The translations under genes were made by a program, and so were the position numbers. This document shows, piece by piece, positions 5,240 to 61,374 of a stretch of DNA of 64,000 nucleotides; the first letter of the stretch is position 1; each line of letters starts with the position of its first letter. The notes beneath the pieces were generated by a model that worked only from the letters and a program-made list of their open reading frames with translations, had not been told where the DNA came from and ran no database searches. The DNA comes from Candidatus Omnitrophota bacterium (GTDB lineage Bacteria > Omnitrophota > Gorgyraeia > Duberdicusellales > 4484-171), in the NCBI GenBank assembly GCA_021735655.1, contig JAIPGM010000003.1:64001-128000 (forward strand), read 5' to 3'.

Positions 5240-6598
5240 ATGTTTTTTAAACCGAGAAAGAAAAAAGCATTTGTTATTGGCCTAGATTGTGCTCCGCCGA
5301 GACTTCTCTTTGATAAATTTAAAGATGAGCTGCCTAATTTCAAGATGATGCTAGATAAAGGGGTTCATTGTCCTATGCGTTCAGTGCATCCGCCGATTAC
5401 AATTCCAGCCTGGATGAGCATGTGCTCTGGCTTGGATGTTGGCGAGATTGGCGTTTATGGGTTTAGAACCCGAAAAGATAATTCTTATACAGAATTTGAT
5501 ATCTCTACTTCTAAAAAGTTTTCTCAAATCGATAAGATTTGGGATATTTTAGCAAAATTAAAAAAGAAAAGTGTTCTTGTAGGTGTTCCTCCAAGTTACC
5601 CAACTTATCATATTGATGGAGGTATGATTTCGGGATTTATTTGTCCTGACGCAGCCAGTAATTTTACTTATCCTGAAAGCTTAAAGGGTGAAATTGAAGA
5701 GTTAGTTGGAGAATATAAACTTGATGTGGTGTTTAGAACCGAAGATCGAGATAAGCTAATAAAATCTGCCTGGGAGATGACCGAGAAGAGATTCAAGGTT
5801 ATTGAGTACTTAATAAAAAATAAACAGTGGGATTTTTTTATGTTCGTTGAGATTGGCGTAGACAGAATTCAGCATGCTTTTTGGAAATATTATGATCCGT
5901 CACACCATCTTTATCAACCTGAGCATAAGTATAAAAACGTCATTTTCGATTACTATAAATTTATTGATCAAAAAGTTGGAAAGATTCTTTCAGTTTTGGA
6001 TAAAGATACTACTGTTTTTACAGTATCCGATCACGGGGCAAAGTCAATGAAAGGAGTTTTTTGTCTTAATGAATGGCTTATTGATAAAGGTTATTTAGTG
6101 TTAAATAAATATCCTGATAAGATAGCCAGCTTCAATCAGCTAGATGTTGATTGGCAAAAAACTCGGGCCTGGGGTTGGGGAGGCCATTGTGGAAGGATTT
6201 TTATTAATAAAAAGAACCGCGAAACTCAAGGGTTAGTTAGAGATTCTGAATATGAGAGTTTGCGCGACGGTCTAATTAAGGAGTTAGAAAATGAAACCGA
6301 TCCTTTAGGTAAACCTTGGAATACGAAAGTTTATAAGCCTAAGGATGTCTATAAAGTGTTAAATGGAACCCCTTCGGACCTTGTGGCTTATTTTGATGAC
6401 TTAGCATATAGGGGTGCAGGTACCGTAGGGCATAAAAAGATTTTTCTAGAAGAAAACGATACTGGTCCTGACGATGCCGCACATGATTGGCAAGGTGTAT
6501 TTATTGAGTATAGTCCTTTAAGTAAAAGTGCAGAAGAATTAAACCAAATAAGCATCCTTGATTTCAAAGATAGAGTATTAAAGAGCATGGGAATATGA
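5240..6598 (+). CDS. Alkaline-phosphatase superfamily protein (type I phosphodiesterase/nucleotide pyrophosphatase family), soluble
   Basis: The N-terminal segment 'AFVIGLDCAPPRLLF' matches the 'IGLDGCDW' segment of the ORF at 7697, so the two are paralogs. The metal-ligand region reads 'TVSDHG'. Confidence 0.55.
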   Translation: MFFKPRKKKAFVIGLDCAPPRLLFDKFKDELPNFKMMLDKGVHCPMRSVHPPITIPAWMSMCSGLDVGEIGVYGFRTRKDNSYTEFDISTSKKFSQIDKIWDILAKLKKKSVLVGVPPSYPTYHIDGGMISGFICPDAASNFTYPESLKGEIEELVGEYKLDVVFRTEDRDKLIKSAWEMTEKRFKVIEYLIKNKQWDFFMFVEIGVDRIQHAFWKYYDPSHHLYQPEHKYKNVIFDYYKFIDQKVGKILSVLDKDTTVFTVSDHGAKSMKGVFCLNEWLIDKGYLVLNKYPDKIASFNQLDVDWQKTRAWGWGGHCGRIFINKKNRETQGLVRDSEYESLRDGLIKELENETDPLGKPWNTKVYKPKDVYKVLNGTPSDLVAYFDDLAYRGAGTVGHKKIFLEENDTGPDDAAHDWQGVFIEYSPLSKSAEELNQISILDFKDRVLKSMGI

Positions 6599-7696: not shown

Positions 7697-9565
7697 ATGG
7701 ATATTTTTATTATTGGAATATTGTGGGCTGCGGCGACTTTTTTTCTTTTTGGGGTCATTGTTGGGATAGGAATAAGTTTTCTAAATAGGTTTAATTTTTC
7801 CTTTATTGGAAACCTATGGTTTTATTTTCTGACCGGCCTTTCCTATATAGCTTATTTAGGCGTAAGAATTATACCCTTGGCTGGTTTGTTGGGATTAATA
7901 TTGGAGGGGTTGCTTGGCATATCAAGATCTGCAGTTATTTTAGTATATCTTGGCTGCACGATTAATCTTCTGACTTACTTTTTTGCCAAATGGTATATTA
8001 CTGGAAAAGAAATACCCTCGACCGTCATAAGTTTCATCCCGGTGGTTCTTTTGGTAATTTTTCGTGAAAGTTTTTCATTGAAAATTATTACTTCTTTGGG
8101 TGCGGTTTGGCTGAGCTTAGTAATTTCAATTAGCTTTCTGGCAGCTTTAATAAGAACTTTTTTTCGTAAGAAAACTACTGGCCAAAAAAGCCAAATTAAA
8201 CCTAATAATTCTTTAAAGCCGGAAGTCAACCAGGTTAATAAAAAAGTAGCTTTTATAGGATTAGATGGTTGCGATTGGCAGTTATTAAAGAGATTTATAG
8301 ATCAAGGTAAATTGCTTACTTTCCGAAGGCTTATTGACGGGGGGGCGTCAGCTAGGCTTAAAACTATTCAGCCGACTCTCTCGCCTTTAATTTGGAACTC
8401 TATACTTACTGGCAAATCGCCTTCCGATCACGGTATCGCCCATTGGTATAAAACTAAATTTCCCCTTCTGCCTCCAGTCGTAGGGGATATTGTCCATCCG
8501 CGCTATTGCCGTTCGAAGCGGATTATTTTATGGTTAATAAAGAAAAATCTGATTAGAAGAATTCCTTTTTCAACCGAGGATAGAGGAGTTAAGGCCATTT
8601 GGAATATATTATCTGATTACGATAAGAGCTCTATTAACGTAGGGTGGATTTTTAGCTGGCCAGCTGAAAAGATTAGGGGGGTTCAGGTAAGTTGGCTTTT
8701 TTATCCTTTTGAGGAGGCAGCTCAAGGTTTTAAAAGATTTAGCTCAAGCAAATTGCCTCAAAGAGTCTATCCGGAAAGTCTATTTGCTGATCTTGAGCGT
8801 TTCATTGTTAGGCCTTCTGATTTAGCCGATGCTGAGTTACGCAGTATGCATTTTACAACCGAAAGTATTAATCCTGAGAAACTTTATGTTGATAAGTTAA
8901 GTCCCTGGGATTATACTAAAGACAAAACTTTTTTACAGGTTAGCAGTTATTTGCTCGACCAAAATAAAGAGTTTGATTTTTTCTCTTTATATCTTTATGG
9001 AATTGACGCCGTTTGTCATAATTACTGGCCATTTTCTAAAGATGCAAGCAACAATCAAAAGCATAAAAACGAGCTACTTTCAGTTAGCGACAGCGAAAAA
9101 TTTAAAAAAGAGGCTGAATCGTTTGATAAATGTATTTTGCGTTATTATGAATATTTAGATAGTGAAATTGCTAAACTTTTAAGTAAGCTTGGTCAAGATT
9201 GCAATATAGTCATAGCTTCTGACCACGGATTTAATTTAGACGGTAGTGAACATGAGAATGCCCCCGATGCGGTGTTGATTGCTTATGGACCTTATATCGC
9301 TAAGGGTAAAAACTTAAGTTCTCTTTCGATATATGATGTTTTGCCTACGGTTTTATGCTTGTTGGGCTTACCATTGGCAAATGATATGCCGGGCAGGGTA
9401 GCTAAGGAGTTGTTTAGCGATCAATTTTTGAATGCTTTTCCTTTTAACTATATTGATAGTTACGAACACACTAGCGATAAGTTAAATGATAGGAGCTTTA
9501 AATTGGATGAGGCTAGCCGCAAAGGTATAGAAGAACGCCTTAGGTCCTTAGGTTATATAGATTAA
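7697..9565 (+). CDS. Membrane-anchored alkaline-phosphatase superfamily protein (N-terminal 5 TM + phosphodiesterase/phosphotransferase domain)
   Basis: About 170 aa of TM helices precede 'VAFIGLDGCDWQLL...TIQPTLSPLIWNSILTG...IASDHGF'. It is a paralog of the ORF at 5240. Confidence 0.55.
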   Translation: MDIFIIGILWAAATFFLFGVIVGIGISFLNRFNFSFIGNLWFYFLTGLSYIAYLGVRIIPLAGLLGLILEGLLGISRSAVILVYLGCTINLLTYFFAKWYITGKEIPSTVISFIPVVLLVIFRESFSLKIITSLGAVWLSLVISISFLAALIRTFFRKKTTGQKSQIKPNNSLKPEVNQVNKKVAFIGLDGCDWQLLKRFIDQGKLLTFRRLIDGGASARLKTIQPTLSPLIWNSILTGKSPSDHGIAHWYKTKFPLLPPVVGDIVHPRYCRSKRIILWLIKKNLIRRIPFSTEDRGVKAIWNILSDYDKSSINVGWIFSWPAEKIRGVQVSWLFYPFEEAAQGFKRFSSSKLPQRVYPESLFADLERFIVRPSDLADAELRSMHFTTESINPEKLYVDKLSPWDYTKDKTFLQVSSYLLDQNKEFDFFSLYLYGIDAVCHNYWPFSKDASNNQKHKNELLSVSDSEKFKKEAESFDKCILRYYEYLDSEIAKLLSKLGQDCNIVIASDHGFNLDGSEHENAPDAVLIAYGPYIAKGKNLSSLSIYDVLPTVLCLLGLPLANDMPGRVAKELFSDQFLNAFPFNYIDSYEHTSDKLNDRSFKLDEASRKGIEERLRSLGYID

Positions 9566-9566
9566 T

Positions 9567-10436
9567 ATGAAAATAGCTTTAATTTACAATAAGGATAATA
9601 ATTCTACTACTGGTATCTATATCGAGAAGGTATTTCAGGAAAATAGAATCAACTATAGTCATTTCTGGACCAAAGATGCGGATAATATTCCAAAACAGTT
9701 TGATCTTTACTTGCGAATCGATCACGGCGATTACAAATATGATCTTCCTGAGGATCTCCGTCCGGCCGTATTTTATGTTATCGATACCCATTTAAAAAAG
9801 CCTTATAAAAAAATCCGGCGACAAGCAAGACATTACGATGTAGTGTTTTGTTCAGAAAAAACTGGTTTGTTGTCTTTGCGTCGGCAGGTGAGGAATGTTG
9901 ATTTTCAGCGGCTTCCGCTCTCTTGTGATCCCCAGATTCATAAAAAATTAAACTTACCTAAAAAATATGATATCGGCTTTGTTGGTTCCCAAGCCCGTAA
10001 GTTTCCTCGCGGACGCCTGATAGATGTTTTGAGAGAGAAGTACCCGAATAGTTATATCAAGGGGGCAAAGTTTAAACAGATGAGTGAGATCTATAGCTCT
10101 TCTAAAATTGGCTTTAACTATGCTATTGCTAACGGTGTTAATATGCGTAATTTTGAGATAATGTCTTGTGGTTGTTTTTTGTTGACGAATCGGATAAAAG
10201 ATAACGGCTTTTACGAACTATTTGAAGAAGGAAAGCACCTTGTTACCTATAGCAATGAAAAAGAACTTTTGCGATTAATTGAGTATTATTTACATAATGA
10301 TAGCGAGCGAGAGCGTATTGCTCAGGCCGGGTTTGAGCTGGTGACTGAAAGACACACTTATTATCATCGGGTTCAAACCTTGTTTAATTATCTTGCTTTT
10401 AAATGGGGCGGAAAATTTAATCAGTTGAGGATATAG
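9567..10436 (+). CDS. CgeB-like glycosyltransferase (Glyco_trans_1_2/DUF3880-type)
   Basis: The C-terminal 'FNYAIANGVNMRNFEIMSCGCFLLTN...LVTYSNEKELLRLIEYYLHNDSERERIAQAG' matches the CgeB family. Confidence 0.55.
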   Translation: MKIALIYNKDNNSTTGIYIEKVFQENRINYSHFWTKDADNIPKQFDLYLRIDHGDYKYDLPEDLRPAVFYVIDTHLKKPYKKIRRQARHYDVVFCSEKTGLLSLRRQVRNVDFQRLPLSCDPQIHKKLNLPKKYDIGFVGSQARKFPRGRLIDVLREKYPNSYIKGAKFKQMSEIYSSSKIGFNYAIANGVNMRNFEIMSCGCFLLTNRIKDNGFYELFEEGKHLVTYSNEKELLRLIEYYLHNDSERERIAQAGFELVTERHTYYHRVQTLFNYLAFKWGGKFNQLRI

Positions 10437-10492
10437 GACATATATGAGTAAATGTGTTGCCAATACATTATAAATTGGTTAATATAAGGAAT

Positions 10493-10598
10493 TTAATCCC
10501 TCGCAGAAATACCCGGGCTTTAGCCCGAGGGATGAATGCTCTTTTAGGATTTCTGCTCGGGAGGAAGCCCCCGGCCTTTTAGTCCGGGGAGTCTTCAC
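10493..10598. repeat. Structured intergenic repeat, copy 1 (~105 nt, nested inverted repeats)
   Basis: It is near-identical to 33813-33912 over 'ttaatccctcgcagaaat.cccgggctttagcccgagggatgaatg' and 'ttctgctcgggaggaagcc'. The 3' hairpin is 'cccggcc-tttta-gtccgggg' here and 'ctcggtc-ttta-gaccgagg' in copy 2, a compensatory change. Confidence 0.6.
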
Positions 10599-10618
10599 AA
10601 ATAAAAGAGAGGTAATTT

Positions 10619-11071
10619 ATGAAAGAACGCATAGAACATAAAGGTGAACTTTTAGGCCTTATTATAAGAGGAGACTATAATCCTTCTCAGACTGAGTTTT
10701 TTACACCTAATGAATTTAAGCAACAGGTTGGATATATATTTTACGATACCGGTCAGGAGGTGGCAGCTCATATTCATCATAATATGCCGCGTAGCCTTGA
10801 GGGTACTTCTGAAGTTTTAATTCTTAAAACCGGCCATGCCCGGATTGATTTTTATTCTCAAGATAAACAATATTTAGAAAGCCGGGAGATATTTCCCGGT
10901 GATATTATTATTTTAGTTTTTGGTGGGCATGGTATTCATTTTTATGAACCAAGTTTACTTCTGGAAATAAAACAAGGTCCTTATATCGGAGTTCAGGAAA
11001 AGGAAAGGTTTCCCTCGGCTTACCCAGAGCAAGAAAAGCTAAAGAAGGATGGTGAACCATTATCCCCGTAA
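10619..11071 (+). CDS. Cupin-fold protein, possibly a WxcM/FdtA-like sugar-nucleotide 3,4-ketoisomerase
   Basis: It is 150 aa with His clusters 'AAHIHHNMPRS' and 'GGHGIHFYE'. It sits immediately upstream of a DegT aminotransferase, the FdtA-FdtB arrangement. The call is tentative. Confidence 0.35.
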   Translation: MKERIEHKGELLGLIIRGDYNPSQTEFFTPNEFKQQVGYIFYDTGQEVAAHIHHNMPRSLEGTSEVLILKTGHARIDFYSQDKQYLESREIFPGDIIILVFGGHGIHFYEPSLLLEIKQGPYIGVQEKERFPSAYPEQEKLKKDGEPLSP

Positions 11072-11079
11072 ATGAACCA

Positions 11080-12222
11080 TTGCTGCCGGGCAATGAATTA
11101 AAGTACGTTTCCGAGTGTCTTAAGACTAATTGGATTTCTTCTTCTGGCAGTTTTCTTGAGCGTTTCGAATCCGAATGGGCAAAGTATTGCGGTCAAAAAT
11201 ATGGTATTGCTGTTTGTAACGGAACGGTTGCTTTAGAGTTAGCTGTAGATGCTTGCAATTTTCCTAAGGGAAGTGAAATAATTCTACCTAGTTTTACTAT
11301 TATTTCTTGCGTCCAGGCGGTTACTAAAGCTGGTTGTAAGCCAGTGCTTGTTGATTGTGATTCGGAAACTTACTGTATGCAAGTAAGCCGGATAGAAGCA
11401 AAAATTACTGACCGGACCGTGGCAATTATGCCGGTACATATGTACGGACATCCAGTTGAAATGAAGCCAATAATGGACATTGCTCAGAAACACGGTCTTG
11501 TTGTTATTGAAGATGTGGCTCAGACCCAGGGAGGTGAATATCGAGGAAAAAAATGCGGTAGTTTTGGTAAGCTTTCCTGTTTTTCATTCTATGCAAATAA
11601 AAATATAACTACTGGCGAAGGAGGTATGGTTTTAACCTCTGATACTGTAATTGCTCAACGTTTGCGTAAGCTCAAAAATCTTTGTTTTTTAAAATCACCA
11701 AGATTTTTGCATTACCGGCTAGGCTATAACTATCGAATGACTAATATCCAAGCTGCTTTAGGCTTAGCCCAATTAGAGAATATCGATAGGTTCATTGAAC
11801 GTAAAATTGACATGGCCAAAAAGTATTCGCAGGCCTTAGTAAATTTACCGCTTCAATTACCTATGGAGCATAAATGGGCCAAGAATGTTATTTGGATGTA
11901 TAATGTGCTCCTTAAGGAAGATAAACAAAGCCAGGAGTTTTTTGAAAAAGACTGGAAAAATATAAGTCCAGAAGAGTATTTTAGATGGCCGGCATACAAG
12001 CTAATGAAAGTTTTAGAGCAGGCTGGAGTACAAACTCGTCCCTTTTTTATTGGAATGCATGAGCAGCCTGTGTTTCATGAGCAGGGGCTGTTTAAGGGTG
12101 AGAGATACCCGGTTACTGAAAAAATTGCTCGTTCTGGTTTTTATCTTCCTAGTGGCCAAGCGATAACTGATTTTCAGATAGATGAAGTTTCGCGAGCTTT
12201 AAAGGAGATATTTAATGAATAA
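11080..12222 (+). CDS. DegT/DnrJ/EryC1/StrS family sugar aminotransferase (ArnB/FdtB-like)
   Basis: It carries 'ELKYVSECLKTNWISSSGSF...CNGTVALELA' and the 'GYNYRMTNIQAALGLAQL' motif. Confidence 0.85.
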   Translation: MLPGNELKYVSECLKTNWISSSGSFLERFESEWAKYCGQKYGIAVCNGTVALELAVDACNFPKGSEIILPSFTIISCVQAVTKAGCKPVLVDCDSETYCMQVSRIEAKITDRTVAIMPVHMYGHPVEMKPIMDIAQKHGLVVIEDVAQTQGGEYRGKKCGSFGKLSCFSFYANKNITTGEGGMVLTSDTVIAQRLRKLKNLCFLKSPRFLHYRLGYNYRMTNIQAALGLAQLENIDRFIERKIDMAKKYSQALVNLPLQLPMEHKWAKNVIWMYNVLLKEDKQSQEFFEKDWKNISPEEYFRWPAYKLMKVLEQAGVQTRPFFIGMHEQPVFHEQGLFKGERYPVTEKIARSGFYLPSGQAITDFQIDEVSRALKEIFNE

Positions 12223-12967
12223 ACATTTATCACTTTCAGTAATTTTGCCTACTTACGATGAGGCTGAAAATATAAGACCTTTGATAGAAAGCATAGCTGA
12301 GGCCACTGAGCATCTTCAGGAAATAATAGTTGTTGATGATGATTCTCCTGATGGGACGGCTGATGTTGTTGAAGATATGATCGAAAGCGGAAAATACCCT
12401 TTTCTAAAACTGGAAAGAAGGCTTAAAAACCCTAGCTTAAGAAATAGTATTTGGAGAGGCATAGAGCTAGCTAGCGGAGATACTGTTGGCTGGATGGATT
12501 GCGATTTTTCCATGCCACCTAGATACTTTCCGGTACTTCTATCTTTAGTAAATGCAGATTATGATATAGCTTTAGGTTCTCGTTTTGTTTTAGGGGGTAC
12601 TTGGAGAGAAGAAACTTTGGAGGATTCAGATACGATTTTAGCGGCTTCAGGTAGCAGGCTGATGAATTTTTTTATTCAGATTTTTCTTGACCACAGAGTT
12701 AGGGATTATACCAGTGGTTTTGTAGTTGCCCGGCGCGATATTTTTAAACGGATTAAATTAAGGGGTGATTATGGTGAGTATTTCATTGATTTTATATATC
12801 GGGCCTTAAAGTTAAGGTATCGGGTGGTTGAAATTCCCTATGTTTGGGCTTCCAGAAGAAGGGGATATTCTAAAACAGGTAATAACCTTAAGGATTATTT
12901 TAAGCGAGGAAGAAAGTATATAGCTACAGTCTTGCGTTTGTTGCTTACGCGAAATTATGAATATTAA
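12215..12967 (+). CDS. Family 2 glycosyltransferase, polyprenyl-phosphate sugar synthase type (ArnC/DPM1-like)
   Basis: The N-terminus reads 'LSVILPTYDEAENIRPLIESI...IIVVDDDSPDGTADVV'. Confidence 0.8.
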   Translation: MNKHLSLSVILPTYDEAENIRPLIESIAEATEHLQEIIVVDDDSPDGTADVVEDMIESGKYPFLKLERRLKNPSLRNSIWRGIELASGDTVGWMDCDFSMPPRYFPVLLSLVNADYDIALGSRFVLGGTWREETLEDSDTILAASGSRLMNFFIQIFLDHRVRDYTSGFVVARRDIFKRIKLRGDYGEYFIDFIYRALKLRYRVVEIPYVWASRRRGYSKTGNNLKDYFKRGRKYIATVLRLLLTRNYEY

Positions 12968-14396
12968 AAAAAATATGAAACCTAAAGTTTTATTAATTAG
13001 TCCTCCTTTTGAGCATGAAGAAGAGTCAGTAGGCAAAACTAAAAGCATTATAAAGGTGTTAAATATTGTGCCGCCTTTAGGGATTGCTTATATTGCTGCG
13101 GTTTTAGAAAGAATCGGGATAGAAGTAAAAATAGTCGATTGTGCTACCGGAATTTCTTTCGACAGTCTTTTTAATAGCATAAAAATAGAATCTCCGGATG
13201 TAGTTGGTCTCACAGTTACTACTCCGGCATTTCTCAAAGCCAAAAAGGTAGCAGCTTTTGTCCGAAAAAATCTTCCTCAAGCAAAGATTTTGATCGGAGG
13301 CGCTCAGGTAACAGCTTTACCTAAAGAGACCCTAGAGACCGGTCTTTTTGATATTGGAATAATCGGTGAGGGAGAGTTAATTATTGAGCAGTTATTTAAA
13401 AATTATAAAAATGAAGGATTTGAGAATTTAAAAGAAGTTCCTGGTATTATTTATAGAGATGATCAAGGCATTCATCAAAATGAAAAACAGGCTTTTGTTG
13501 AGGATTTAGATTCTTTACCACTCCCGGCAAGGCATCTTTTGCCACATCCTAAATTTTATCGTCCTACTCCAGCTTCTTGTCGTAAAGTCCCTTATGTTGT
13601 GATTATGACTTCTCGTGGTTGTCCTTCAAAATGTACTTTTTGTGATCGAAAAATATTCGGTGAACGCTGCCGGATGAGAAGTGTAGCTAATATTTTTGAA
13701 GAGATAGAAGAGGTAGTATCAAAATATGGAGTAAAAGAGATAAGGTTTTTTGATGATACTTTTACTTTGGATAAAAAAAGAGTTTATAAAATTTGCGATG
13801 AATTTGAAAAGCGAAAACTTAAGCTTGCTTGGACCTGTCTTACCAAAGCAGCCTGCGTGGATGGTCCGCTACTAAAGCGAATGAGGCAGGTTGGTTGTTG
13901 GCAAGTTTTATATGGTTTTGAATCTGGTGATGACCGAGTCCTCAAACTGCTTAAAAAAGGCAATACTGTAGAGTTGAACAAAAGAGCAGTTCGTTTGACT
14001 AAAGAAGCTGGCCTTGAAGTGAGAGGGGATTTTATCGTTGGAACCCCTGGTGAAACTTGGGAGAGTTTAGAGAGAACCGTGCGTTTTGCTATAGATATGG
14101 ATTTAGATTACGCCCATTTTAATAAATTCATACCTTTTCCGGGAACAGAATTGTACCAGAATCTTAGGCAGCAGGGATATTCTTTTGATTTTTCTAAGAG
14201 TACTATATTAGACCACACTCAAATTCATTATGTTAATGAAGGTATGACTGCGGAGGGGTTTTCTCGATTTTTAGATAAAGCTAATAAAAGGTTTTACTTA
14301 AGATGGAAATATATATTAAAAAGACTATTTTCTATCCGAACTTTTCACCAGTTAAAAGGCCAAATAAACGGATTTTTTGCTATTTTTGAGATTTAA
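12957..14396 (+). CDS. B12-binding domain-containing radical SAM protein
   Basis: An N-terminal cobalamin-binding Rossmann region is followed by 'IMTSRGCPSKCTFCDRKIF', the CxxxCxxC motif. The downstream radical SAM core contains 'VLYGFESGDDRVLKLL'. Confidence 0.85.
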   Translation: MNIKKNMKPKVLLISPPFEHEEESVGKTKSIIKVLNIVPPLGIAYIAAVLERIGIEVKIVDCATGISFDSLFNSIKIESPDVVGLTVTTPAFLKAKKVAAFVRKNLPQAKILIGGAQVTALPKETLETGLFDIGIIGEGELIIEQLFKNYKNEGFENLKEVPGIIYRDDQGIHQNEKQAFVEDLDSLPLPARHLLPHPKFYRPTPASCRKVPYVVIMTSRGCPSKCTFCDRKIFGERCRMRSVANIFEEIEEVVSKYGVKEIRFFDDTFTLDKKRVYKICDEFEKRKLKLAWTCLTKAACVDGPLLKRMRQVGCWQVLYGFESGDDRVLKLLKKGNTVELNKRAVRLTKEAGLEVRGDFIVGTPGETWESLERTVRFAIDMDLDYAHFNKFIPFPGTELYQNLRQQGYSFDFSKSTILDHTQIHYVNEGMTAEGFSRFLDKANKRFYLRWKYILKRLFSIRTFHQLKGQINGFFAIFEI

Positions 14397-14397
14397 A

Positions 14398-15897
14398 ATG
14401 AAAAAAGACGTTGTTTTAATTTTACTTTGTTTTTTTGCAGTGGTAATCCTATTTACTAATTTAGGAGGCACCTATCTTTGGCAAGATGAAGCCACAACCG
14501 CAGTTTTAGGTAGGAACACGTTAAACTTTGGAATCCCTAAGGCTTTTGATGGAAAAAATCTTATTCTCAACATCTATGAAGATCCTTGTGTCGATAAGGG
14601 TTGGAAGTATGCTCCCTGGCTTCAATTTTATCTTGTGGCTGGATCATTTTGGTTATTAGGAGAAACCACCTTTGCTGCTCGCTTGCCTTTTGCTATATTT
14701 GGCGTTGGTGCTTTACTGTTGTGCTTTTTATTGGCCGAGCGGCTGTTTAAAAATAGATTAGTTTCAAGAATTGCTTGCGCCTTCATGGCTTTTTCCAGTA
14801 TTTTTTTCCTCTATATGCGTCAAGCCAGGTGGTATCCACTTACCACTTTTTTCACCCTTTGGCTGCTAGTTTCGTACTTAGATTTAGTCAAAAGTAAGAA
14901 GAAAGCTATTTTAGGTTTTGTGCTTAGCGCTGTATTACTTTTTCACTCTAATTACGGAATTTTCTTTTCCGTATTCTTAGGTCTAGCTTCTCATTTCTTT
15001 ATTTTTAACAGAAGTAACATTAAGGCGATTGGGATAAAAAAGATAGTATTTTGTCTTTTTATGATTACCATATTAACTTTACCTTCTTTATTGTATCTTG
15101 GTAGTGTGGAGTATAGCGGAAAGATAACCTTCGAGCGGACAGAGGACCATTTAGAATTCTATTTTCGTTCACTTAATAAGTATATTTTTCCTGTAGGATT
15201 TTTATTCTTCAGTTTAACTTTTTTTAGCTTCTTTAGGAAAAAAGTTTTTCCAATATTGGGCAAACCGTTAGATAAGCAAAACCTTTGGCTTTTGATTTGT
15301 GTATTTATTTCTACTATTTGTTTTCTTCTTTTGGCCGATGAGAGGCAATTAAGATATCTCGTGCATTTATTGCCAATTTTTTCTATTATCCTAGGAGTTT
15401 TAATTGTCGGATGGTTAAAGATAAATAAAATAGCTGCGGTTTTACTTTTTGTTATTATTTGTTTTACAAATATATTTAATCGGGGAAGTTTCTCTCATAA
15501 TAAACTATCGATTCATCCGGTTAATATAGTTTATGAATTAACCCATGATTATGACGGTCCGGTAGAAGGAATAGTAAAGTTTTTAAATCGCCAGGCAAAG
15601 CCAACAGATACGGTTAAGCTAATTTATGGTGATTATGCTACGATTTTTTATACTGATCTTCGTGTCGACAATAGTTGCTTTAAGTGTAAAACCTTTCCAG
15701 AATGGATTGTTATCAGAGATGGTTGGTTTCCTTTGAAGAATTTAGACAAAGATTATCTTAGAGAGATAAATGAGAGATATCAAAAAATAATACTGGATTA
15801 TCCTGACATAATGTGGGAGAATCGGCCCGACCCTGGTTATCATAAATTCAAAACAGTATCAGATTGGCCGCCGGTTGTAATATATAAGAAAAAATGA
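14398..15897 (+). CDS. GT-C family glycosyltransferase (ArnT / dolichyl-phosphate-mannose protein mannosyltransferase-like, GT39/GT83)
   Basis: The start is placed at the ATG giving 'MKKDVVLILLCFF'. It is a polytopic membrane protein with the N-terminal 'LWQDEATTAVLGRNTLNFGIPKAFDG' typical of ArnT/PMT_2. Confidence 0.65.
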   Translation: MKKDVVLILLCFFAVVILFTNLGGTYLWQDEATTAVLGRNTLNFGIPKAFDGKNLILNIYEDPCVDKGWKYAPWLQFYLVAGSFWLLGETTFAARLPFAIFGVGALLLCFLLAERLFKNRLVSRIACAFMAFSSIFFLYMRQARWYPLTTFFTLWLLVSYLDLVKSKKKAILGFVLSAVLLFHSNYGIFFSVFLGLASHFFIFNRSNIKAIGIKKIVFCLFMITILTLPSLLYLGSVEYSGKITFERTEDHLEFYFRSLNKYIFPVGFLFFSLTFFSFFRKKVFPILGKPLDKQNLWLLICVFISTICFLLLADERQLRYLVHLLPIFSIILGVLIVGWLKINKIAAVLLFVIICFTNIFNRGSFSHNKLSIHPVNIVYELTHDYDGPVEGIVKFLNRQAKPTDTVKLIYGDYATIFYTDLRVDNSCFKCKTFPEWIVIRDGWFPLKNLDKDYLREINERYQKIILDYPDIMWENRPDPGYHKFKTVSDWPPVVIYKKK

Positions 15898-16916
15898 GCT
15901 GCGACATTATTATTCCGGTTTGGAATCTGATTGATTTTACAAGAGATTGTATAGAGAGCGTATTGAGCCAGACAGAATACCCTTTTCATTTGATTGTTAT
16001 TGATAACGGCAGCGATAGTGAAACTAAAGAATATTTATTCAAGTTGGCTCAACAAAGAAAGAACGAAATTACCCTGATTAGAAATGAAAATAATCTAGGA
16101 TTTATTAAAGCAACTAATCAGGGAATAAGAGCCTCTAAGGCCCCTTATTTATGTCTTTTAAATAACGATACAATAGTCACTAAGGGTTGGCTTAGAGAAA
16201 TGGTTAAATTGGCAACTAGCAGAGAAGATATAGGCATAGTCAATCCTAGTAGTAATACTTTAGGTTGTAATCCAAAGCGCGGAGATTCTTTGGAGTCGTT
16301 TGCCGAGGAGCGGAAATCTTACTCGGGAGAATATTCTGAACTAGCCTGGGCAACTGGATTTTGTATGTTGATTAAACGTAAAATTATTGAAGAGGTAGGG
16401 TTGCTTGATGAAGTATATGGAATGGGTAATTTCGAAGACGCTGATTTTTGCAAAAGAGCTCAAAAACAAGGTTATCTATCTGTTTGCGCCAAGGCTGCCT
16501 ATGTTCATCATCAAGAAAGACGTTCATTTATAAGATTTAAGAAATTCAACCAGAACTTTGAGGACAATAAACAGACCTTCTATGCTAAATGGGGAAGCTT
16601 AAAGCGCATACTTTATGTTTTGAATAAAGAAGACCATCTTTATATAGAAAGAATAGGAGCCGAAGCTTTAAAATTGGCCCGTGAGGGAAATATTGTTTGG
16701 ATTTTTTCAAAAGGCAGAGATAAGTTAGAGATTAGAAAGCACTCTAATATTTATGTCTATAATCGCCCAAAGCCTTTTTTTAATTTAACTAATTTTTTGA
16801 TTATTTTGAAACGTAAGAAGAAATTTGATAAGATATACGTAAATAGCAAGAGTTATGCTAAAAGGTTAAACAGTTTTAAATATATTCATAAAGCAGAGGT
16901 GATCTGCGCAGAATAA
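15894..16916 (+). CDS. Family 2 glycosyltransferase
   Basis: The N-terminus reads 'DIIIPVWNLIDFTRDCIESVLSQTEYPFHLIVIDNGSDSET'. A 'DAD' motif follows further downstream. Confidence 0.75.
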   Translation: MSCDIIIPVWNLIDFTRDCIESVLSQTEYPFHLIVIDNGSDSETKEYLFKLAQQRKNEITLIRNENNLGFIKATNQGIRASKAPYLCLLNNDTIVTKGWLREMVKLATSREDIGIVNPSSNTLGCNPKRGDSLESFAEERKSYSGEYSELAWATGFCMLIKRKIIEEVGLLDEVYGMGNFEDADFCKRAQKQGYLSVCAKAAYVHHQERRSFIRFKKFNQNFEDNKQTFYAKWGSLKRILYVLNKEDHLYIERIGAEALKLAREGNIVWIFSKGRDKLEIRKHSNIYVYNRPKPFFNLTNFLIILKRKKKFDKIYVNSKSYAKRLNSFKYIHKAEVICAE

Positions 16917-16966: not shown

Positions 16967-17974
16967 ATGAAGAGAATTGGAATTATCGGTTGTGGACATT
17001 GGGGCCCGAATTATCTGCGTAATTTTAGTCAGTTAGAAGATTCATCAGTATTAGTTTGTTGTGACTTATCAAAAGATAATTTAGATAAGGTTAAGAAACA
17101 CTACAGATCGATAGAGGTTGTTGAAGATTACAAGGATGTGCTTAGGGACAAGCGTATTGATGCGGTTGTCATTGCTACTCCTGCTCGAACTCATTATAAA
17201 ATCGCTAAAGATGCACTTTCAGCCGGTAAGCATATTTTATTAGAAAAGCCAATGGCTTTAAACTATGCAGATTGTAAAAAGTTGGTCAATTTGGCAAAAG
17301 AAAAGAAAAGAATCCTTATGGTTGGTCACACTTTTTTGTTTAATCCGGCTGTAAGAAAGTTGAAGGATTATATAAAAAAAGGTGCTGTGGGAAAGATTTA
17401 TTATTTGCATGCAACCAGGACACATTTAGGTTTAGTCCGTAACGATGTAAATGTGAGTTGGGATTTAGTACCACATGATATATCTATATTTTCTTATTTA
17501 TTAGGAGAAATGCCGATTAGTGTTTCAGCTTTGGGCGGATCCTTTTTGAGAAGTCCGAAACAAGATGTAGTGTTTATTAATTTAATTTACCCGAAGGGTA
17601 TAATTGCTAATATTCATGCTAGCTGGGCCGATTCCAATAAGGTTAGAGAAATTCAGGTAATCGGCAGTCGGGCCAGAGTGGTTTTTGATGATTTAAATAG
17701 TATGGAAAAGATAAAACTGTACAAGAAAGGAATATCTGTAGATAAGTCATATGCCAATTTTGGTGAATTCCAATTACTTTTAAGAGACGGCGATATTCTT
17801 AGTCCCAAAATTGGTCCCGAGGAACCGCTACGACTTCAATGCCAACATTTTTTAAACTGTCTTAAAAACGGAAAGAAGCCATTTGTTGATGGAGAAGACG
17901 GTGCGAGTGTTGTTAAGATAATGAATGCAATAAATAAATCTTTAGTATTGGGAGCTAGGGTGGTTAAAGTATGA
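16967..17974 (+). CDS. Gfo/Idh/MocA family NAD-dependent sugar oxidoreductase (WbpB/GnnA-like)
   Basis: It carries 'KRIGIIGCGHWGPNYL' and the consensus 'EKP' motif. Confidence 0.8.
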   Translation: MKRIGIIGCGHWGPNYLRNFSQLEDSSVLVCCDLSKDNLDKVKKHYRSIEVVEDYKDVLRDKRIDAVVIATPARTHYKIAKDALSAGKHILLEKPMALNYADCKKLVNLAKEKKRILMVGHTFLFNPAVRKLKDYIKKGAVGKIYYLHATRTHLGLVRNDVNVSWDLVPHDISIFSYLLGEMPISVSALGGSFLRSPKQDVVFINLIYPKGIIANIHASWADSNKVREIQVIGSRARVVFDDLNSMEKIKLYKKGISVDKSYANFGEFQLLLRDGDILSPKIGPEEPLRLQCQHFLNCLKNGKKPFVDGEDGASVVKIMNAINKSLVLGARVVKV

Positions 17975-18579
17975 AAACGAAGAATTTCTTAATTGGAAAA
18001 AATTCTAAAATTGATAAATCGGTAATCTTAGGTGAGAAAACAGGCAGGAAAATTAAGATTTCAAAGACGATTATCGGAAAAGATGCAAGGGTAAGGTCAA
18101 ATACGGTTATTTATTCAAATACTAAGATTGGCGATGGATTGGAGACAGGGCACAATGTTGTGATTCGCGAACAAAACAAAATCGGCAATAATTTAAGTAT
18201 TTGGAATAACTCTACCATTGATTATGGATGTGAAATTGGCAATAATGTTAAGATCCACGCCAATACTTATGTAGCTCAGTTTACTGTCATTGAAGATGAT
18301 GTTTTTCTAGCTCCCGGGGTAATGATTGCAAATGATCCTCATCCTATCTGTACAAAATGCATGAAAGGCCCATTAATAAAAAAAGGGGCACGGATCGGGG
18401 TGAATGTTACGCTTTTACCTAATATTGTAATTGGGGAAAATTCTTTAGTTGGAGCCGGCAGCGTTGTCACTAAGGATGTTGCGGCTAACGTGGTAGTTTT
18501 TGGCTCACCGGCAAAAGTAGGCGGAAGAATTAAAGATTTAAAGTGCAAAGCAAGAATAAAGGATAGAGCCTATGAGTAA
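17971..18579 (+). CDS. Hexapeptide-repeat (left-handed beta-helix) N-acetyltransferase (WbpD/PglD-like)
   Basis: Tandem '[LIV]G.N..I' hexapeptide repeats run through most of the 202-aa protein. Confidence 0.7.
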
Positions 18580-19693
18580 TAATAAGATGAACGTTCCTTT
18601 TGTGGATTTACAGATTCAATATCGTAAGTTGAGCAAGGAAATCAATCAACGGTTAATTGAAACAGTTGAAAGCGGTTCTTTTATTTTAGGTGAAAGTGTT
18701 CAAAAGTTTGAGCAGGAATTTGCTAATTATTGTGGCGCAAAACATGCTGTAGGTATTGCTTCGGGAACTGCTGCTTTATTTTTGTCTCTAAAAAGCTTAG
18801 GAGTCGGCAGGGGAGATGAAGTAATTACTCCGGCAAATACATTTATTGCAACAGCCTTAGCTATTTATTATACCGGAGCAAAGATTATCTTAGTAGACAT
18901 AGATGAAGAAACCTATAATTTAGATATAAAAAAGACAGAAGCGGTAATAAATAGCAAAACCAAAGCTATCCTACCAGTGCATCTTTATGGTCAACCGATA
19001 GATTTAGAGCCTTTACTTGCTTTAGCTAAGAAACACAACTTAATAGTTGTTGAGGATGCTTGCCAGGCTCACGGTGCTGAATATAAAGGCAAAAAGGTGG
19101 GAGGATTCGGTAACGCTGCAGCCTTTAGCTTTTATCCTGGTAAAAATTTAGGTGCTTTTGGTGATGCCGGTATAGTAGTGACTAACGATGAAAAGGTTAA
19201 AGATGAATTGATCATGTTGAGAAACTATGGCCAGAAACAAAAGTATCATCATTTAGTAAAAGGGTATAATTCTCGTTTAGATACAATTCAGGCAGAAATA
19301 TTGAGAGTTAAGCTTGGCTATTTAGACCAATGTAATGAAGAGCGAAGAAAAAGTGCTCAAGTTTATAAAACCTTGCTTCAAAGCATCAGTGACCGTATCT
19401 TAATTCCTAAAGAAATGTCATCAGTAAAACATGTTTGGCATCTTTATGTAATTAGGGCAGAAAAAAGAGATGACTTACAGGAATATCTTAAAAAGGCAGG
19501 GATTAGTACCGGTATACATTATCCTATTCCGATTCATTTGCAGCCGGCTTTTTCTGATTTAGATTATAAGAAGGGAGACCTTCCTGTTACAGAAAAGACT
19601 GCTGATCAGATTCTTTCTTTGCCGATGTACCCAGGGTTAAAAGAAGAGCAAATTGAATATGTTGTGAAAAAAATAAGTGATTTTTTGCAGTAA
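18572..19693 (+). CDS. DegT/DnrJ/EryC1/StrS family sugar aminotransferase (WbpE/GnnB-like)
   Basis: It carries '[13 protein letters not shown]...GTAALFLSL' and '[14 protein letters not shown]'. Confidence 0.85.
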
Positions 19694-19709: not shown

Positions 19710-20807
19710 ATGAAGCTATTTTTTAAATCTTGGCAGAAAAAAAGTAAAAAGAAGAGAATTCTTTTTGCTGGAGTCTGCCATGCTAATTTCATACAGTTTA
19801 GGCCAATTTATGAGATCCTTAAGCAGGATCCAAGAGTTGAAATTTTATTCTCTGGTATGTATCAAAGTAAAGACCGGCCGCGTGAACTCTATAAACCTTT
19901 TAATATAGATAAGAAATTCATCATAAGAGAAAAGTTCGCAAAAACTTTGAGTTTTGACATCTATATTAGCCCAGATTATCACATGATTGACAATAACTAT
20001 TCTTCAACTATTCAGTTTTTTCACACCACTTCTTTTAGAAATTTCTCAGTTAGTGAAGAGGCAAAAAGCTTTGATCAGATTTTTTTAATTGGGCCGTACA
20101 TGAAGCGTAAGTTTATCGAGGCAGGTATTTTTGAAGTTGATGATCCGAGATTAAAAGAAGTAGGCATGCCGCAAACAGATGCTCTTTTAGATAATATCGA
20201 CACTGGTTTGTCTGAGAGACTTGGCTTAGATAAGAGTCTTCCGACTATACTTTACGCTCCAGTCTGGGCGCCGATAGAGAGCTTTCTTGAAGATGTTCAA
20301 ACAACACTTAAAACTTTAACCTCAATTAAGGCTAATCTTCTTCTTAAGTTGCACGATAAATTTTATTATCAACAGGTAAATAAAATTAGATGGCGGGAGT
20401 TTTTGAATTTGGTGCTAAGCGAGAATAAGAATGTACATTTAATAGATGATTTTGATATTATACCTTACATGAAAATTAGTGATTTGCTTGTCAGCGACGT
20501 TAGTGCTGTTGTACATCAGTTTTCTATATTAGATAAGCCAATAGTATGCATGAAGGTAGATGTTGATGAGTTTAAAAAGTTCTGGCCAGGGCTTGATCAT
20601 AAAGCCTATTTAGATCGCGCGGTAATAGAAGCTTCTCAAGGAGAGGCTTTAAAAGAGGCAGTTTTGGGAGAACTTGCTAATCCTGGCAATTTGAGTCAAA
20701 AACGGATAGCCATGAGTAAAGAGTATTTTTATAATATTGGGTTTTCTGCAAAATGCGCAGTTTCGCAAATTTATCAGTCTTTTAATCTAAAGAATACAGA
20801 TGAATAA
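19710..20807 (+). CDS. CDP-glycerol glycerophosphotransferase family protein (TagB/TagF-like), tentative
   Basis: 'PTILYAPVWAP' resembles the TagF 'ILYAPT[WF]R' motif. 'DLLVSDVSAVVHQFSILDKPIV' resembles the TagF C-terminal motif. Confidence 0.45.
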   Translation: MKLFFKSWQKKSKKKRILFAGVCHANFIQFRPIYEILKQDPRVEILFSGMYQSKDRPRELYKPFNIDKKFIIREKFAKTLSFDIYISPDYHMIDNNYSSTIQFFHTTSFRNFSVSEEAKSFDQIFLIGPYMKRKFIEAGIFEVDDPRLKEVGMPQTDALLDNIDTGLSERLGLDKSLPTILYAPVWAPIESFLEDVQTTLKTLTSIKANLLLKLHDKFYYQQVNKIRWREFLNLVLSENKNVHLIDDFDIIPYMKISDLLVSDVSAVVHQFSILDKPIVCMKVDVDEFKKFWPGLDHKAYLDRAVIEASQGEALKEAVLGELANPGNLSQKRIAMSKEYFYNIGFSAKCAVSQIYQSFNLKNTDE

Positions 20808-21903
20808 AAAGCCGCTTTCCTCAAAAAATAGTTTCTTAGTTAAACTGAAAGTCAGCCAAGAAATCCTTATGGATGCCGAGCAAATAGCTATAGGTGGGTA
20901 CGCTCCAGTTGATGGTTTTATGGGAAAGGCTGACTTTGAATCAGTTTTGAATAATATGCGCCTTGTAAAAGGTGATGTTTGGACTTTGCCAATAGTGTTA
21001 GATATAAGTAAAAAAGAAGCAGCATCAATTAAAATCGGGGATGAAATATTGCTTGGTGACGGCCAGGATCAGGAAAATTTTCTTTTTTCTGTGGAAGATA
21101 TTTATGAACATGATAAATCTTTGTATTGCGATAAGGTTTATGGTACTAAAGATGTAGCTCATTCAGGAGTAGCAAAGGTGCTTAAGATGGGAGAGGTCCT
21201 TGTAGGGGGCCGGGTTATATCGGTTTTAAATAATTTTGATTTTGATATGCGTAAATTCACCATGACCCCGAAAGAGACAAAAGCCCAGTTTGAAAAAAAT
21301 AATTGGAAAACGGTTGTTGCTTTTCATACCCGGAATGTGGTGCACAGAGCCCATGAGTATCTTCAGCGCTGTGCTATGGAATATGCCGATGGAATTTTGA
21401 TCCATCCTGCGGTTGGCTTTACAAAACCCGGTGATTTCAAGAAAGAGCTTATAATAAAGGGCTATCAAAGTTTAATTGATAACTATTATCCAAAAAATAA
21501 AGCTCTTCTCTCGGCTTTGGGCATAGGCATGAAATTTGCCGGGCCAAGAGAAGCTGTATTTCATGCCTTGGTGCGGAAAAATTATGGTTGTACACATATA
21601 ATTATTGGTAGAGATCATGCTGGCGTAGGCGGATACTATGAGAAGTATGCCGGACATAAGATATTTTCTAGTTTGCCATCTTTGGGCATAACCCCTTTAT
21701 TATTTAAGGGACCGTTTTATTGCAATAAATGTGAAGCTATGGCTACCGAAAGCACCTGCTCGCATGATGAGTCTTATAGGTCAGAAGTCAGCGGAACATT
21801 AGCTCGTAAATTCATAAAGGAAAAGAAAAAGCTCCCTAAGTGGCTGATGCGTCCTGAAATCGCAAACTTGCTTGAAGACCTCGGTGAAAGCGTTTTTTCT
21901 TAA
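20800..21903 (+). CDS. sat: Sulfate adenylyltransferase (ATP sulfurylase)
   Basis: It has the 'VVAFHTRNVVHRAHEYL' QTRN/HxxH region and the 'IIGRDHAGVGGYY' motif. Confidence 0.8.
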   Translation: MNKKPLSSKNSFLVKLKVSQEILMDAEQIAIGGYAPVDGFMGKADFESVLNNMRLVKGDVWTLPIVLDISKKEAASIKIGDEILLGDGQDQENFLFSVEDIYEHDKSLYCDKVYGTKDVAHSGVAKVLKMGEVLVGGRVISVLNNFDFDMRKFTMTPKETKAQFEKNNWKTVVAFHTRNVVHRAHEYLQRCAMEYADGILIHPAVGFTKPGDFKKELIIKGYQSLIDNYYPKNKALLSALGIGMKFAGPREAVFHALVRKNYGCTHIIIGRDHAGVGGYYEKYAGHKIFSSLPSLGITPLLFKGPFYCNKCEAMATESTCSHDESYRSEVSGTLARKFIKEKKKLPKWLMRPEIANLLEDLGESVFS

Positions 21904-21926
21904 AACTTAAATAAGGAGTAAACAAG

Positions 21927-33816: not shown

Positions 33817-33912
33817 TCCCTCGCAGAAATCCCCGGGCTTTAGCCCGAGGGATGAATGTACATTGTTTTCTGCTCGGGAGGAAGCCTCGGTCTTTAGACC
33901 GAGGAGCTTCAC
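33813..33912. repeat. Structured intergenic repeat, copy 2 (begins at the pgsA stop codon)
   Basis: See copy 1 at 10493-10598: the core is shared and the 3' hairpin shows compensatory substitutions. A further hairpin 'agattttt-cttcg-aaaaatct' follows at about 33920-33940. Confidence 0.6.
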
Positions 33913-45514: not shown

Positions 45515-45683
45515 CAAAATACCTCCTTTTAAAGCATTGTATCATTGATTGAAAAAATTTTAAATTAGATTGATTGGTTATAATTTGTTATTTAGGATTA
45601 TAGGAAATGAGGATAGTTTTGACATTCTAGAGGAAAAGATTGAAAGTCTGCCAGTGATGCTGTATCCAGGAGGTTAGTTTATA

Positions 45684-46493: not shown

Positions 46494-46506
46494 CAAAATA
46501 CCTCCT
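46393..46506. repeat. 114-bp segment 100% identical to 45414-45527 (pilin RBS + first ~33 codons)
   Basis: Direct comparison of the two loci shows identity over 'ttctcaattgctttaaaagcattgggtgcgattattgcagctagaatggcaatgatcgcgataactacgattagttcaataagcgtaaatgactttttcatcaaaatacctcct'. Flanking sequence is unrelated. Confidence 0.8.
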
Positions 46507-46550
46507 GTAAAAAAGTATATCATTAATTGGGGGTAATTTCAAATCGAAGT

Positions 46551-61329: not shown

Positions 61330-61374
61330 GCAATATTTTTAGGTCAAATATAAGAATATGATAAAAAAGGAAGC

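Follow-up and report, generated by a model that had tools for sequence, protein, structure and literature searches.

In a 64,000-nucleotide stretch of the genome of a Candidatus Omnitrophota bacterium (contig JAIPGM010000003.1; the whole stretch is referred to below as the window), a block of six genes at positions 10619-16916, all on the + strand, combines a sugar aminotransferase of the DegT family, a glycosyltransferase of family 2 (GT2), a B12-binding radical S-adenosylmethionine (SAM) protein and a polytopic transferase of the GT-C fold. We propose, at odds of about one in two, that these genes represent a conserved cassette for the periplasmic decoration of the cell envelope through a polyprenyl-phosphate carrier, equipped with its own sugar chemistry. 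We regard the cassette as an uncharacterized variant, conserved over a wide range of lineages, among the polyprenyl-phosphate-sugar decoration systems. For bacteria, systems that pair a polyprenyl-phosphate sugar with a GT-C transferase (Arn, Gtr, GacI/L, PpgS) are a major means of modifying lipid A, O-antigen, teichoic acids and arabinogalactan, and such decorations affect antibiotic resistance as well as phage and immune recognition. To our knowledge, the characterized ones all move ordinary sugars or 4-amino-4-deoxyarabinose (Ara4N). The genes of the block, from 5' to 3', are as follows.

10619-11071, + strand: cupin-like protein, 150 amino acids (aa), with a sub-threshold match to WbuC and an HxH...E...H pattern
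11059-12222, + strand (first canonical start, TTG 11080): DegT1, a DegT-family pyridoxal-phosphate sugar aminotransferase (PF01041, 363 bits)
12215-12967, + strand: GT2a, 250 aa, a putative polyprenyl-phosphate sugar synthase (PF00535, 98 bits)
12957-14396, + strand: B12-binding radical SAM protein, 479 aa, class-B-type (PF02310, 78 bits; PF04055, 96 bits)
14398-15897, + strand (open reading frame from 14377): GT-C, 499 aa, polytopic, ArnT-like (PMT_2, 25.8 bits; GT-C fold model)
15894-16916, + strand: GT2b, 340 aa (PF00535, 104 bits)

A sequence-only reading of this DNA had put forward an Arn-like module of DegT, GT2, B12-type radical SAM and GT-C genes, preceded by a cupin, and both this order and the coordinates hold, on the + strand, for every gene it named, as judged by open reading frame (ORF), Pfam and NCBIfam scans. 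It had also regarded the radical SAM gene as an insertion into that module, and on this point the neighborhoods of related genes tell otherwise. A genome scan yielded 46 related loci, in 31 of which the radical SAM orthologue is flanked on either side by 4 kb or more; partner genes were called by tblastn and ORF clustering, and five contexts were annotated with Pfam (single loci are given below as L001, L049 and the like where they need to be told apart). Genes similar to DegT1 and to GT2a both lie within 5 kb of the radical SAM orthologue in 25 of the 31 fully flanked loci, and the GT2a-like gene adjoins it in 27. This DegT-GT2-radical SAM triad ranges over Omnitrophota, the PVC group, Planctomycetes, Verrucomicrobia, Chloroflexi and Desulfobacterota, with gene order and strand differing among the lineages and with the DegT proteins of different phyla sharing 40-45% identity. 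The arrangement is beyond chance, and, as the triad is kept across phyla in this manner, the radical SAM protein emerges as a core member of the cassette, indeed its most constant one, instead of an insertion.

The radical SAM protein has 3721 detectable homologues. Of those at 92-70% identity, all that bear an organism name belong to Candidatus Omnitrophota, and those at 53-60% belong to Aminicenantes, Desulfobacterota, Chloroflexi, the PVC group and other metagenome-assembled genomes. The named close homologues and the carriers of the cassette found so far represent uncultivated lineages; as to cultured carriers, a plasmid collection yielded only paralogues of the radical SAM protein, of 27-31% identity.

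The triad is often accompanied by a GT-C/PMT_2 protein and by a class I SAM methyltransferase (~246 aa), the cassette comprising 4-6 genes. In each of the five Pfam-annotated contexts, no more than a few genes separate the GT-C/PMT_2 gene from the triad. One example is the Chloroflexi locus L049, with the order PMT_2, GT2, DegT, radical SAM, methyltransferase, and another is L052, from a metagenomic contig, with the order GT2, DegT, radical SAM, PMT_2. In the Desulfobacterota loci L047 and L051, two GT-C paralogues and the radical SAM gene are followed by methyltransferase, DegT and GT2 genes on the opposite strand, and the two GT-C proteins are recognized by the profile hidden Markov model (HMM) of the window GT-C family (E 1e-46 to 1e-50). 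The Desulfobacterota loci are embedded in unrelated housekeeping genes (cytochrome cd1, serine biosynthesis), and the minimal ones hold only GT2, DegT, methyltransferase, radical SAM and two GT-C genes.

One may argue that these genes are mere neighbors within a large lipopolysaccharide (LPS) or polysaccharide locus, and that the radical SAM protein modifies an unrelated lipid, cofactor or peptide. The first 26 kb of the window do form one long same-strand glycan locus, with many unrelated adjacent steps, the GT-C gene is not always found beside the triad, and L029-L031 and L034 hold extra radical SAM paralogues without DegT or GT2. Such an argument has to be set against the presence of the triad in at least six phylum-level lineages, despite shuffled order and strand and unrelated surroundings, and against the overlap of start and stop codons in the window, and we consider it very improbable.

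The packing of the block is indeed tight, the intergenic distances along it, from 5' to 3', being 8, -8, -11, +1 and -4 nucleotides, and the overlapping reading frames argue for co-transcription. Consensus scans against shuffled sequence found no excess of terminator-like sites within the block (8 versus 6.9 expected), and likewise none of promoter-like sites; a split of the operon by internal terminators or promoters was therefore dropped.

In the case of DegT1, the peptide TIIPVNEP is encoded between an in-frame TGA (11053-55) and the TTG at 11080, and the same is found in L001, the closest relative. As this conserved N-terminal peptide is upstream of the first ATG, GTG or TTG and directly after the in-frame stop, a non-canonical start is suggested, and the true start is probably ATT 11059 or ATC 11062, overlapping the end of the cupin gene. 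Among the NCBIfam models, LegC scores best with DegT1 (308 bits), short of its cut-off of 420, while ArnB reaches 200 bits of the 631 needed. The best match in PDB is the perosamine synthetase of C. crescentus (3BN1, E 1e-82), with 46.5% identity over 288 columns (residues 3-288), and Lys174 of DegT1 falls, in the alignment, on a residue that 3BN1 and 3DR7 have as Lys and 3DR4 as Ala. The C-terminal third of DegT1 is divergent, carries an insertion and aligns weakly to perosamine synthase. Identity to perosamine synthase is as high as that among the triad DegT proteins of different phyla, and it points to a GDP-4-keto-6-deoxyhexose, of perosamine type, as the substrate that this similarity suggests. 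With GDP-perosamine synthase (Per/RfbE) the cassette enzyme shares this level of identity and the catalytic lysine, from LegC it is set apart by the family cut-off, and from both it differs in being always coupled to GT2a and the radical SAM protein, as Per and LegC are not.

GT2a resembles enzymes that load sugars onto lipid carriers. Its best PDB match is the dolichyl-phosphate (Dol-P) mannose synthase (DPMS) of P. furiosus (5MLZ, E 5e-29), followed by ArnC (2e-10) and GtrB (2e-7), a ranking that bears out the earlier description of this GT2 as ArnC-like, with ArnC in second place. Its top NCBIfam matches (ArnC, a haloarchaeal Dol-P-hexose transferase, AglJ and PgfS) are all polyprenyl-phosphate glycosyltransferases and all remain under cut-off, ArnC at 52.8 bits versus 529; its 20 NCBIfam matches do not include the HpnI model. 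Residues 95-97 (DCD) make up a DxD motif. On this basis, GT2a is a candidate polyprenyl-phosphate sugar synthase, of the DPMS/ArnC/GtrB type. It has no transmembrane segment, in which it differs from GtrB, ArnC and the P. furiosus DPMS, all of which possess transmembrane helices; residues 224-241, at its C-terminus, form a cationic amphipathic stretch (hydrophobic moment 0.67, net charge +5). The C-terminus of the radical SAM protein is likewise cationic and amphipathic, and such termini in the two proteins fit work at the membrane surface.

The GT-C gene most likely starts at ATG 14398, not at 14377, since the identical 499-aa NCBI protein (P0121, [quoted passage not shown]) begins at this codon. 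Its PMT_2 score of 25.8 bits is just short of the cut-off of 26.1, and its score with the ArnT equivalog is 17.3 bits versus 567. An AlphaFold2 (AF2) model (mean predicted local distance difference test, pLDDT, 89.6; predicted template modeling score, pTM, 0.92) has the GT-C fold, with a C-terminal periplasmic alpha/beta domain, and Foldseek places ArnT (5F15/5EZM) first (E 3.5e-8), followed by ALG9/12, OST/PglB, Emb and PMT. ArnT is also the sole PDB match (E 2.5e-10) of a profile of 42 family sequences. GT-C enzymes have catalytic acidic residues in the first external loop; here W28, D30 and E31, directly after the first transmembrane segment, are invariant in the 42 homologues, the whole W28-Q-D30-E31 stretch being invariant or nearly so, and the protein thus has both the predicted GT-C fold and a conserved acidic residue in the loop where it would be expected. 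A protein O-mannosyltransferase (PMT, GT39) was considered and rejected: PMT_2 is under cut-off, PF02366 and MIR do not match, the length of 499 aa is that of ArnT rather than of PMT, and PMT structures rank under ArnT, ALG and OST in Foldseek. The sequence-only reading, which had called this protein ArnT/PMT-like, is sustained here on the ArnT side.

The radical SAM protein consists of an N-terminal B12-binding Rossmann domain and a CxxxCxxC core, both with Pfam scores above cut-off, and its motif, CPSKCTFC, is found at residues 222-229, with C222, C226 and C229 invariant in the family. Among the NCBIfam models, HpnJ (TIGR03471) is first, with 224.7 bits versus a cut-off of 577.6, the same length and a full-length alignment, and BchE (TIGR02026) is second, with 207.9 bits versus 481; this ranking holds for all 37 aligned members of the family. 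Lower ranks are occupied by ApyD, two P-methyltransferase families, MgmA (136 bits), a ladderane-type lipid radical SAM family, BzaD, HpnR and AprD4 (109 bits, cut-off 500), and none of these curated families reaches its cut-off. In pairwise BLAST, the protein is ~30% identical to a genuine HpnJ and to three annotated BchE proteins alike (mean 156-173 bits), and is thus equidistant from both; the reference HpnJ, from Mycetohabitans, where it is located between hpnI and hpnK, gives 156 bits. Neither hopanoid genes nor a bch context are found in the window. In PDB, sequence search finds AprD4 (E 1e-25) and MgmA (entry 9CCB, 3e-19), at ~22% identity each, and Foldseek with an AF2 model (pLDDT 91) ranks AprD4 first (TM-score 0.75/0.78, E ~5e-26), followed by MgmA (~8e-26), TsrM, OxsB, CysS and TokK; the TM-scores of AprD4 and MgmA range over 0.67-0.78.

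What reaction these similarities imply is a separate matter. AprD4 is a non-methylating radical SAM 1,2-diol dehydratase, acting on the aminosugar ring of paromamine in the biosynthesis of apramycin, and MgmA (QCMT) is a B12-type glutamine C-methyltransferase. As the dehydratase and the methylase tie, the fold is uninformative as to the reaction, and assignment by the nearest structure was dropped. AprD4 possesses a related N-terminal domain that does not bind B12 (PMC12931638). With AprD4 neither binding cobalamin nor methylating, and with the other fold matches being cobalamin enzymes, similarity supports no conclusion on either the use of cobalamin or methyl transfer. A role in P-methylation or phosphonate metabolism was also rejected, with Sden_1168 at 168 bits and PhpK at 139 bits, both below HpnJ and BchE, and with no phosphoenolpyruvate (PEP) mutase in the triad.

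C-methylation, the role that the sequence-only reading had taken as typical, is still by our estimate the single most likely reaction, as most characterized class B radical SAM enzymes are methylases, although it falls somewhat short of an even chance, and the placement, which gives HpnJ and then BchE, with AprD4 and MgmA tied by structure, does not single it out. That reading had also named membership in a non-methylating, BchE-like clade as an outcome that would speak against it; HpnJ and BchE do rank first, at an identity of ~30%, which amounts to that outcome in part only. Non-methylating radical chemistry on the sugar is nearly as likely, as methylation is not the reaction of the closest curated families or of the closest structure, two of which act on aminosugars, and as no dehydratase of the short-chain dehydrogenase/reductase (SDR) family is consistently linked to the cassette; some other reaction would take the remainder. 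More specifically, and tentatively, such chemistry may occur directly on a polyprenyl-phosphate- or GDP-linked hexose, as a ketone-making dehydration or oxidation or as a rearrangement of the carbon skeleton. Reviews of 2026 on B12-type and on lipid-modifying radical SAM enzymes name no enzyme of this kind, and in the literature we found nothing relevant linking B12-type radical SAM enzymes with undecaprenyl, O-antigen, perosamine or GT-C.

One version of this idea places the radical SAM protein before DegT1: as a dehydratase or dehydrogenase similar to AprD4, BtrN or DesII, it would make the keto group on a GDP- or polyprenyl-phosphate-linked hexose, and a deoxy-amino product would result with no need for an SDR. 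Partnerships of radical SAM and DegT enzymes on sugars do exist, as in BtrN/BtrS and DesI/DesII, and here too DegT and the radical SAM protein are the tightly coupled pair; AprD4, an aminosugar diol dehydratase, is the nearest structure by both sequence and fold, the best curated family matches are non-methylating, and an SDR is absent even from the minimal Desulfobacterota loci, as from their short gene list above. However, the AprD4 model scores far below its cut-off and below several methylase families, the methylases MgmA, TsrM, CysS and TokK fit the fold almost equally well, the identity of DegT1 to perosamine synthase suggests an ordinary GDP-4-keto-6-deoxymannose, normally supplied by Gmd, and the strong Pfam match of the B12-binding domain (78 bits) suits a true cobalamin enzyme better than one like AprD4. 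We regard this version as rather unlikely.

Another version builds on the HpnJ ranking. In it, the radical SAM protein would contract a ring in the manner of HpnJ or calditol synthase, converting a hexose placed by the GT2 on a membrane lipid into a carbocyclic cyclitol that DegT would then aminate; the cassette would thus make an aminocyclitol head group on a lipid, and not a sugar for transfer. HpnJ, being the top curated family for every one of the 37 members, of equal length and aligned over its full length, acts in an analogous setting, after the GT2 HpnI, on lipid-linked glucosamine (PMC13459092), and the radical SAM protein here has a cationic amphipathic C-terminus. The ~30% identity to genuine HpnJ is, on the other hand, no better than that to BchE and comes with a score far under cut-off, GT2a resembles polyprenyl-phosphate synthases and does not match HpnI, and no deacetylase similar to HpnK is present. 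The recurrent GT-C protein, moreover, implies a transferable glycosyl donor, which an ether-linked, ring-contracted cyclitol would not be. This scenario appears quite improbable.

Returning to decoration through a polyprenyl-phosphate carrier, the steps may be envisaged as follows. DegT1 would transaminate a GDP-4-keto-6-deoxyhexose, made by an enzyme encoded elsewhere, to a GDP-4-amino-4,6-dideoxyhexose, GT2a would link this aminosugar to polyprenyl phosphate on the inner side of the membrane, the radical SAM protein would carry out one radical tailoring step on either the nucleotide sugar or the lipid-linked sugar, some flippase would move the lipid-linked sugar across the membrane, and the ArnT-like GT-C would transfer it onto an envelope glycan. 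With GT9, Wzy_C and Bac_transf genes in its surroundings, the cassette of this diderm probably acts on the LPS core or O-antigen. Lipid A, the acceptor named in the sequence-only reading, is unlikely in general, as the cassette also occurs in Chloroflexi/Anaerolineae; Chloroflexi are generally regarded as devoid of LPS.

A number of observations weigh against this proposal. As to the keto sugar, the cassette has no 4,6-dehydratase, or any other enzyme that could supply it, as a regular neighbor; none is present at 1-26 kb of the window or in the minimal Desulfobacterota loci, and no Gmd adjoins DegT1. The only SDR in the window, and thus its sole candidate sugar dehydratase, is a generic epimerase/dehydratase at 34019-35095, 18 kb off, so that a local, Gmd-like source was dropped from consideration. 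As to the transferase, the HMM of the window-type GT-C does not recognize the PMT_2 protein of either L049 or L052, and the GT-C partner is therefore not one orthologous family across phyla, while in a close relative, L053, the GT-C gene is ~7 kb from the triad. No copy of the class I methyltransferase, frequent in relatives, is found in the window. No flippase candidate is found at the locus either, as no small ORF with multiple transmembrane segments is present between 10.4 and 17 kb; a flippase may be encoded elsewhere in the genome. Finally, the best curated families of the radical SAM protein (HpnJ, BchE) and its best structure (AprD4) are all non-methylating, and, with the related domain of AprD4 being without B12, the binding of cobalamin is not readable from sequence.

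Two of these points call for side remarks. The SDR at 34019-35095 resembles dTDP-glucose 4,6-dehydratase and GalE, far under the cut-offs, and lies between pgsA-like and pgpA-like phospholipid genes. A VanZ-like protein of 148 aa with four transmembrane segments is encoded 8 kb upstream of the block.

Compared to known systems, the cassette is closest in logic to Arn (Pmr), with which it shares the three-part scheme of a DegT aminotransferase, a GT2 loading polyprenyl phosphate and a periplasmic GT-C; ArnT is the closest solved structure to its GT-C, and ArnC the second-best solved relative of GT2a. The earlier term "Arn-like" stands as far as this scheme is concerned, but it does not extend to orthology, as no protein of the cassette scores as an Arn orthologue (ArnB 200/631, ArnC 53/529, ArnT 17/567 bits). 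Counterparts of ArnA, ArnD and ArnE/F are also missing: a Pfam search of ORFs of at least 100 aa over 1-32 kb found no formyltransferase, SDR decarboxylase, polysaccharide deacetylase or EamA/SMR pair. The perosamine-synthase-like aminotransferase points to a GDP-6-deoxyhexose, whereas Arn uses a UDP-pentose, and the cassette differs further in its obligatory extra member, the radical SAM protein with a B12 domain, and in its occurrence in Chloroflexi, for which no lipid A is expected.

With Gtr, CsbB/YfhO, GacI/GacL, PpgS/Rv3779 and Dpm1/PMT, the cassette shares the pairing of a DPMS/GtrB-type GT2 with a GT-C. Those systems move unmodified glucose, GlcNAc, GalNAc or mannose and have no sugar-tailoring enzymes, whereas the cassette has a built-in aminotransferase and radical SAM protein, often along with a methyltransferase, and no GtrA-like flippase is seen. 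As to AprD4 and MgmA, these are the two closest solved structures of the radical SAM protein, and AprD4 acts on an aminosugar; their reactions are, however, unrelated (cobalamin-free dehydration in one case and cobalamin-dependent methylation in the other), so this likeness assigns neither to the cassette enzyme. The HpnI-HpnK-HpnJ system likewise combines a GT2 and a radical SAM protein with a B12 domain, of the same length and architecture, acting on a lipid-linked (amino)sugar (PMC13459092), but the cassette has neither hopanoid genes nor HpnK nearby, and GT2a is of the DPMS type, not the HpnI type.

If the proposal is correct, a B12-type radical SAM protein as a fixed part of such a cassette would mean an envelope sugar beyond the reach of ordinary two-electron chemistry, and nucleotide- or lipid-linked sugars of primary cell-envelope metabolism would become a new class of substrates for radical SAM enzymes. 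If the reaction is a non-methylating one, the cassette would represent a new and widespread route, in which a carrier-bound sugar is radically tailored before its transfer by a GT-C.

The remaining two genes of the block are of more limited distribution. The cupin is restricted to Omnitrophota-type loci (7 members) and is found directly upstream of DegT1 in L001, L003, L005, L006, L007 and L053; it is an accessory partner of the Omnitrophota-type versions of the cassette. Its H51, H53, E65 and H104 (HxH...E...H) are invariant in the 7 homologues. Its sole family match is WbuC, at 19.2 bits versus a cut-off of 42; no Pfam family is found at E<=0.01, and only noise at E<=1, and a profile of the 7 sequences finds nothing meaningful in PDB at E<=10. 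The role of an FdtA-like ketoisomerase, suggested for this protein in the sequence-only reading, was given up, as was a QdtA-like one, with neither PF05523 nor a solved FdtA or QdtA giving a signal in the Pfam and PDB profile searches. GT2b, whose first 4 nucleotides are shared with the end of the GT-C gene, adjoins the GT-C gene in L001 and L053 and is close to it in L041, a pairing seen with the window-type GT-C in Omnitrophota, and it is probably involved in the same decoration step or in the synthesis of its acceptor.

Paralogues of the radical SAM protein are also found in much larger glycan clusters. L002, L003, L006, L041, L049 and L052 possess, beside the triad, 2-4 further B12-binding radical SAM paralogues (24-33% identical), along with GT1/GT4 glycosyltransferases, methyltransferases and a carbamoyltransferase. 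Plasmid-borne glycan clusters of two cultured Desulfovibrionaceae, on plasmid 1 of Lawsonia intracellularis (L055) and on pDCAR1 of Solidesulfovibrio carbinolicus (L054), also hold radical SAM paralogues, together with GT2s, class I methyltransferases, heptose-type genes of the SIS, HAD and GHMP families and DUF2142/DUF2304 membrane proteins; the Lawsonia paralogue is closest to HpnJ (266 bits). Going by these paralogues from Lawsonia and Solidesulfovibrio, B12-type radical SAM proteins in surface-glycan loci appear to be a recurring, unstudied theme.

The window has a G+C content of ~36%, and almost all of its genes are on the + strand. The envelope-glycan locus that occupies its first 26 kb encodes a Bac_transf initiating transferase, a Wzy_C/O-antigen-ligase-like protein, two GT9 heptosyltransferase-like proteins and several GT2 and GT1 glycosyltransferases, along with two phosphodiesterase-like proteins of the AlkP superfamily, a WbpB/WbpD/WbpE-like trio, a glycerophosphotransferase-like protein and ATP sulfurylase. 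The trio (16967-19693), directly downstream of the cassette and with overlapping frames, consists of a GFO/IDH/MocA oxidoreductase (UDP-GlcNAc 3-dehydrogenase-like), a hexapeptide acetyltransferase and a second DegT, and it resembles WbpB/WbpD/WbpE for a 2,3-diacetamido sugar. From the genes that follow at 19710-22469, which encode the CDP-glycerol glycerophosphotransferase-like protein, the ATP sulfurylase and an HpcH/PK-barrel-like fragment of 180 aa, one may suspect that the same glycan also carries glycerophosphate and/or sulfate. The two type I phosphodiesterase/AlkP-superfamily proteins (5240-6598 and 7697-9565), one with ~6 transmembrane segments, are encoded between the O-antigen-ligase-like and GT9 genes; they have no NCBIfam equivalog and may be transferases of phospho-substituents for LPS.

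The spacer upstream of the cupin gene carries a ~100-nucleotide segment (10492-10597) with two G+C-rich hairpins, an RNA fold z-score of -2.5 and no Rfam match. A second copy is present in another intergenic spacer, at 33812-33895, ahead of the SDR gene discussed above (98% identity over 47 nucleotides and 86% over a further 29), and in L001, the closest relative, the orthologous spacer lacks it; the segment probably represents a small insertion similar to repetitive extragenic palindromes or miniature inverted-repeat transposable elements (REP/MITE-like). A riboswitch upstream of the block was rejected on these grounds, the structured segment being a repeat that lies outside the module. Neither a cobalamin nor any other riboswitch matches at the Rfam gathering threshold in the window, with only noise at 10350-10700, and over all 64 kb the Rfam models find no family at gathering score, neither ribosomal RNA nor transfer RNA nor any other known RNA.

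Repeats of another sort mark three pilin-like genes with the N_methyl motif, at 45410-45533, 46389-46512 and 61336-61484, whose 5' ends are near-identical, forming direct repeats of 124 nucleotides and inverted repeats of 95-146 nucleotides; a prepilin peptidase gene is located nearby, at 59378-60199.

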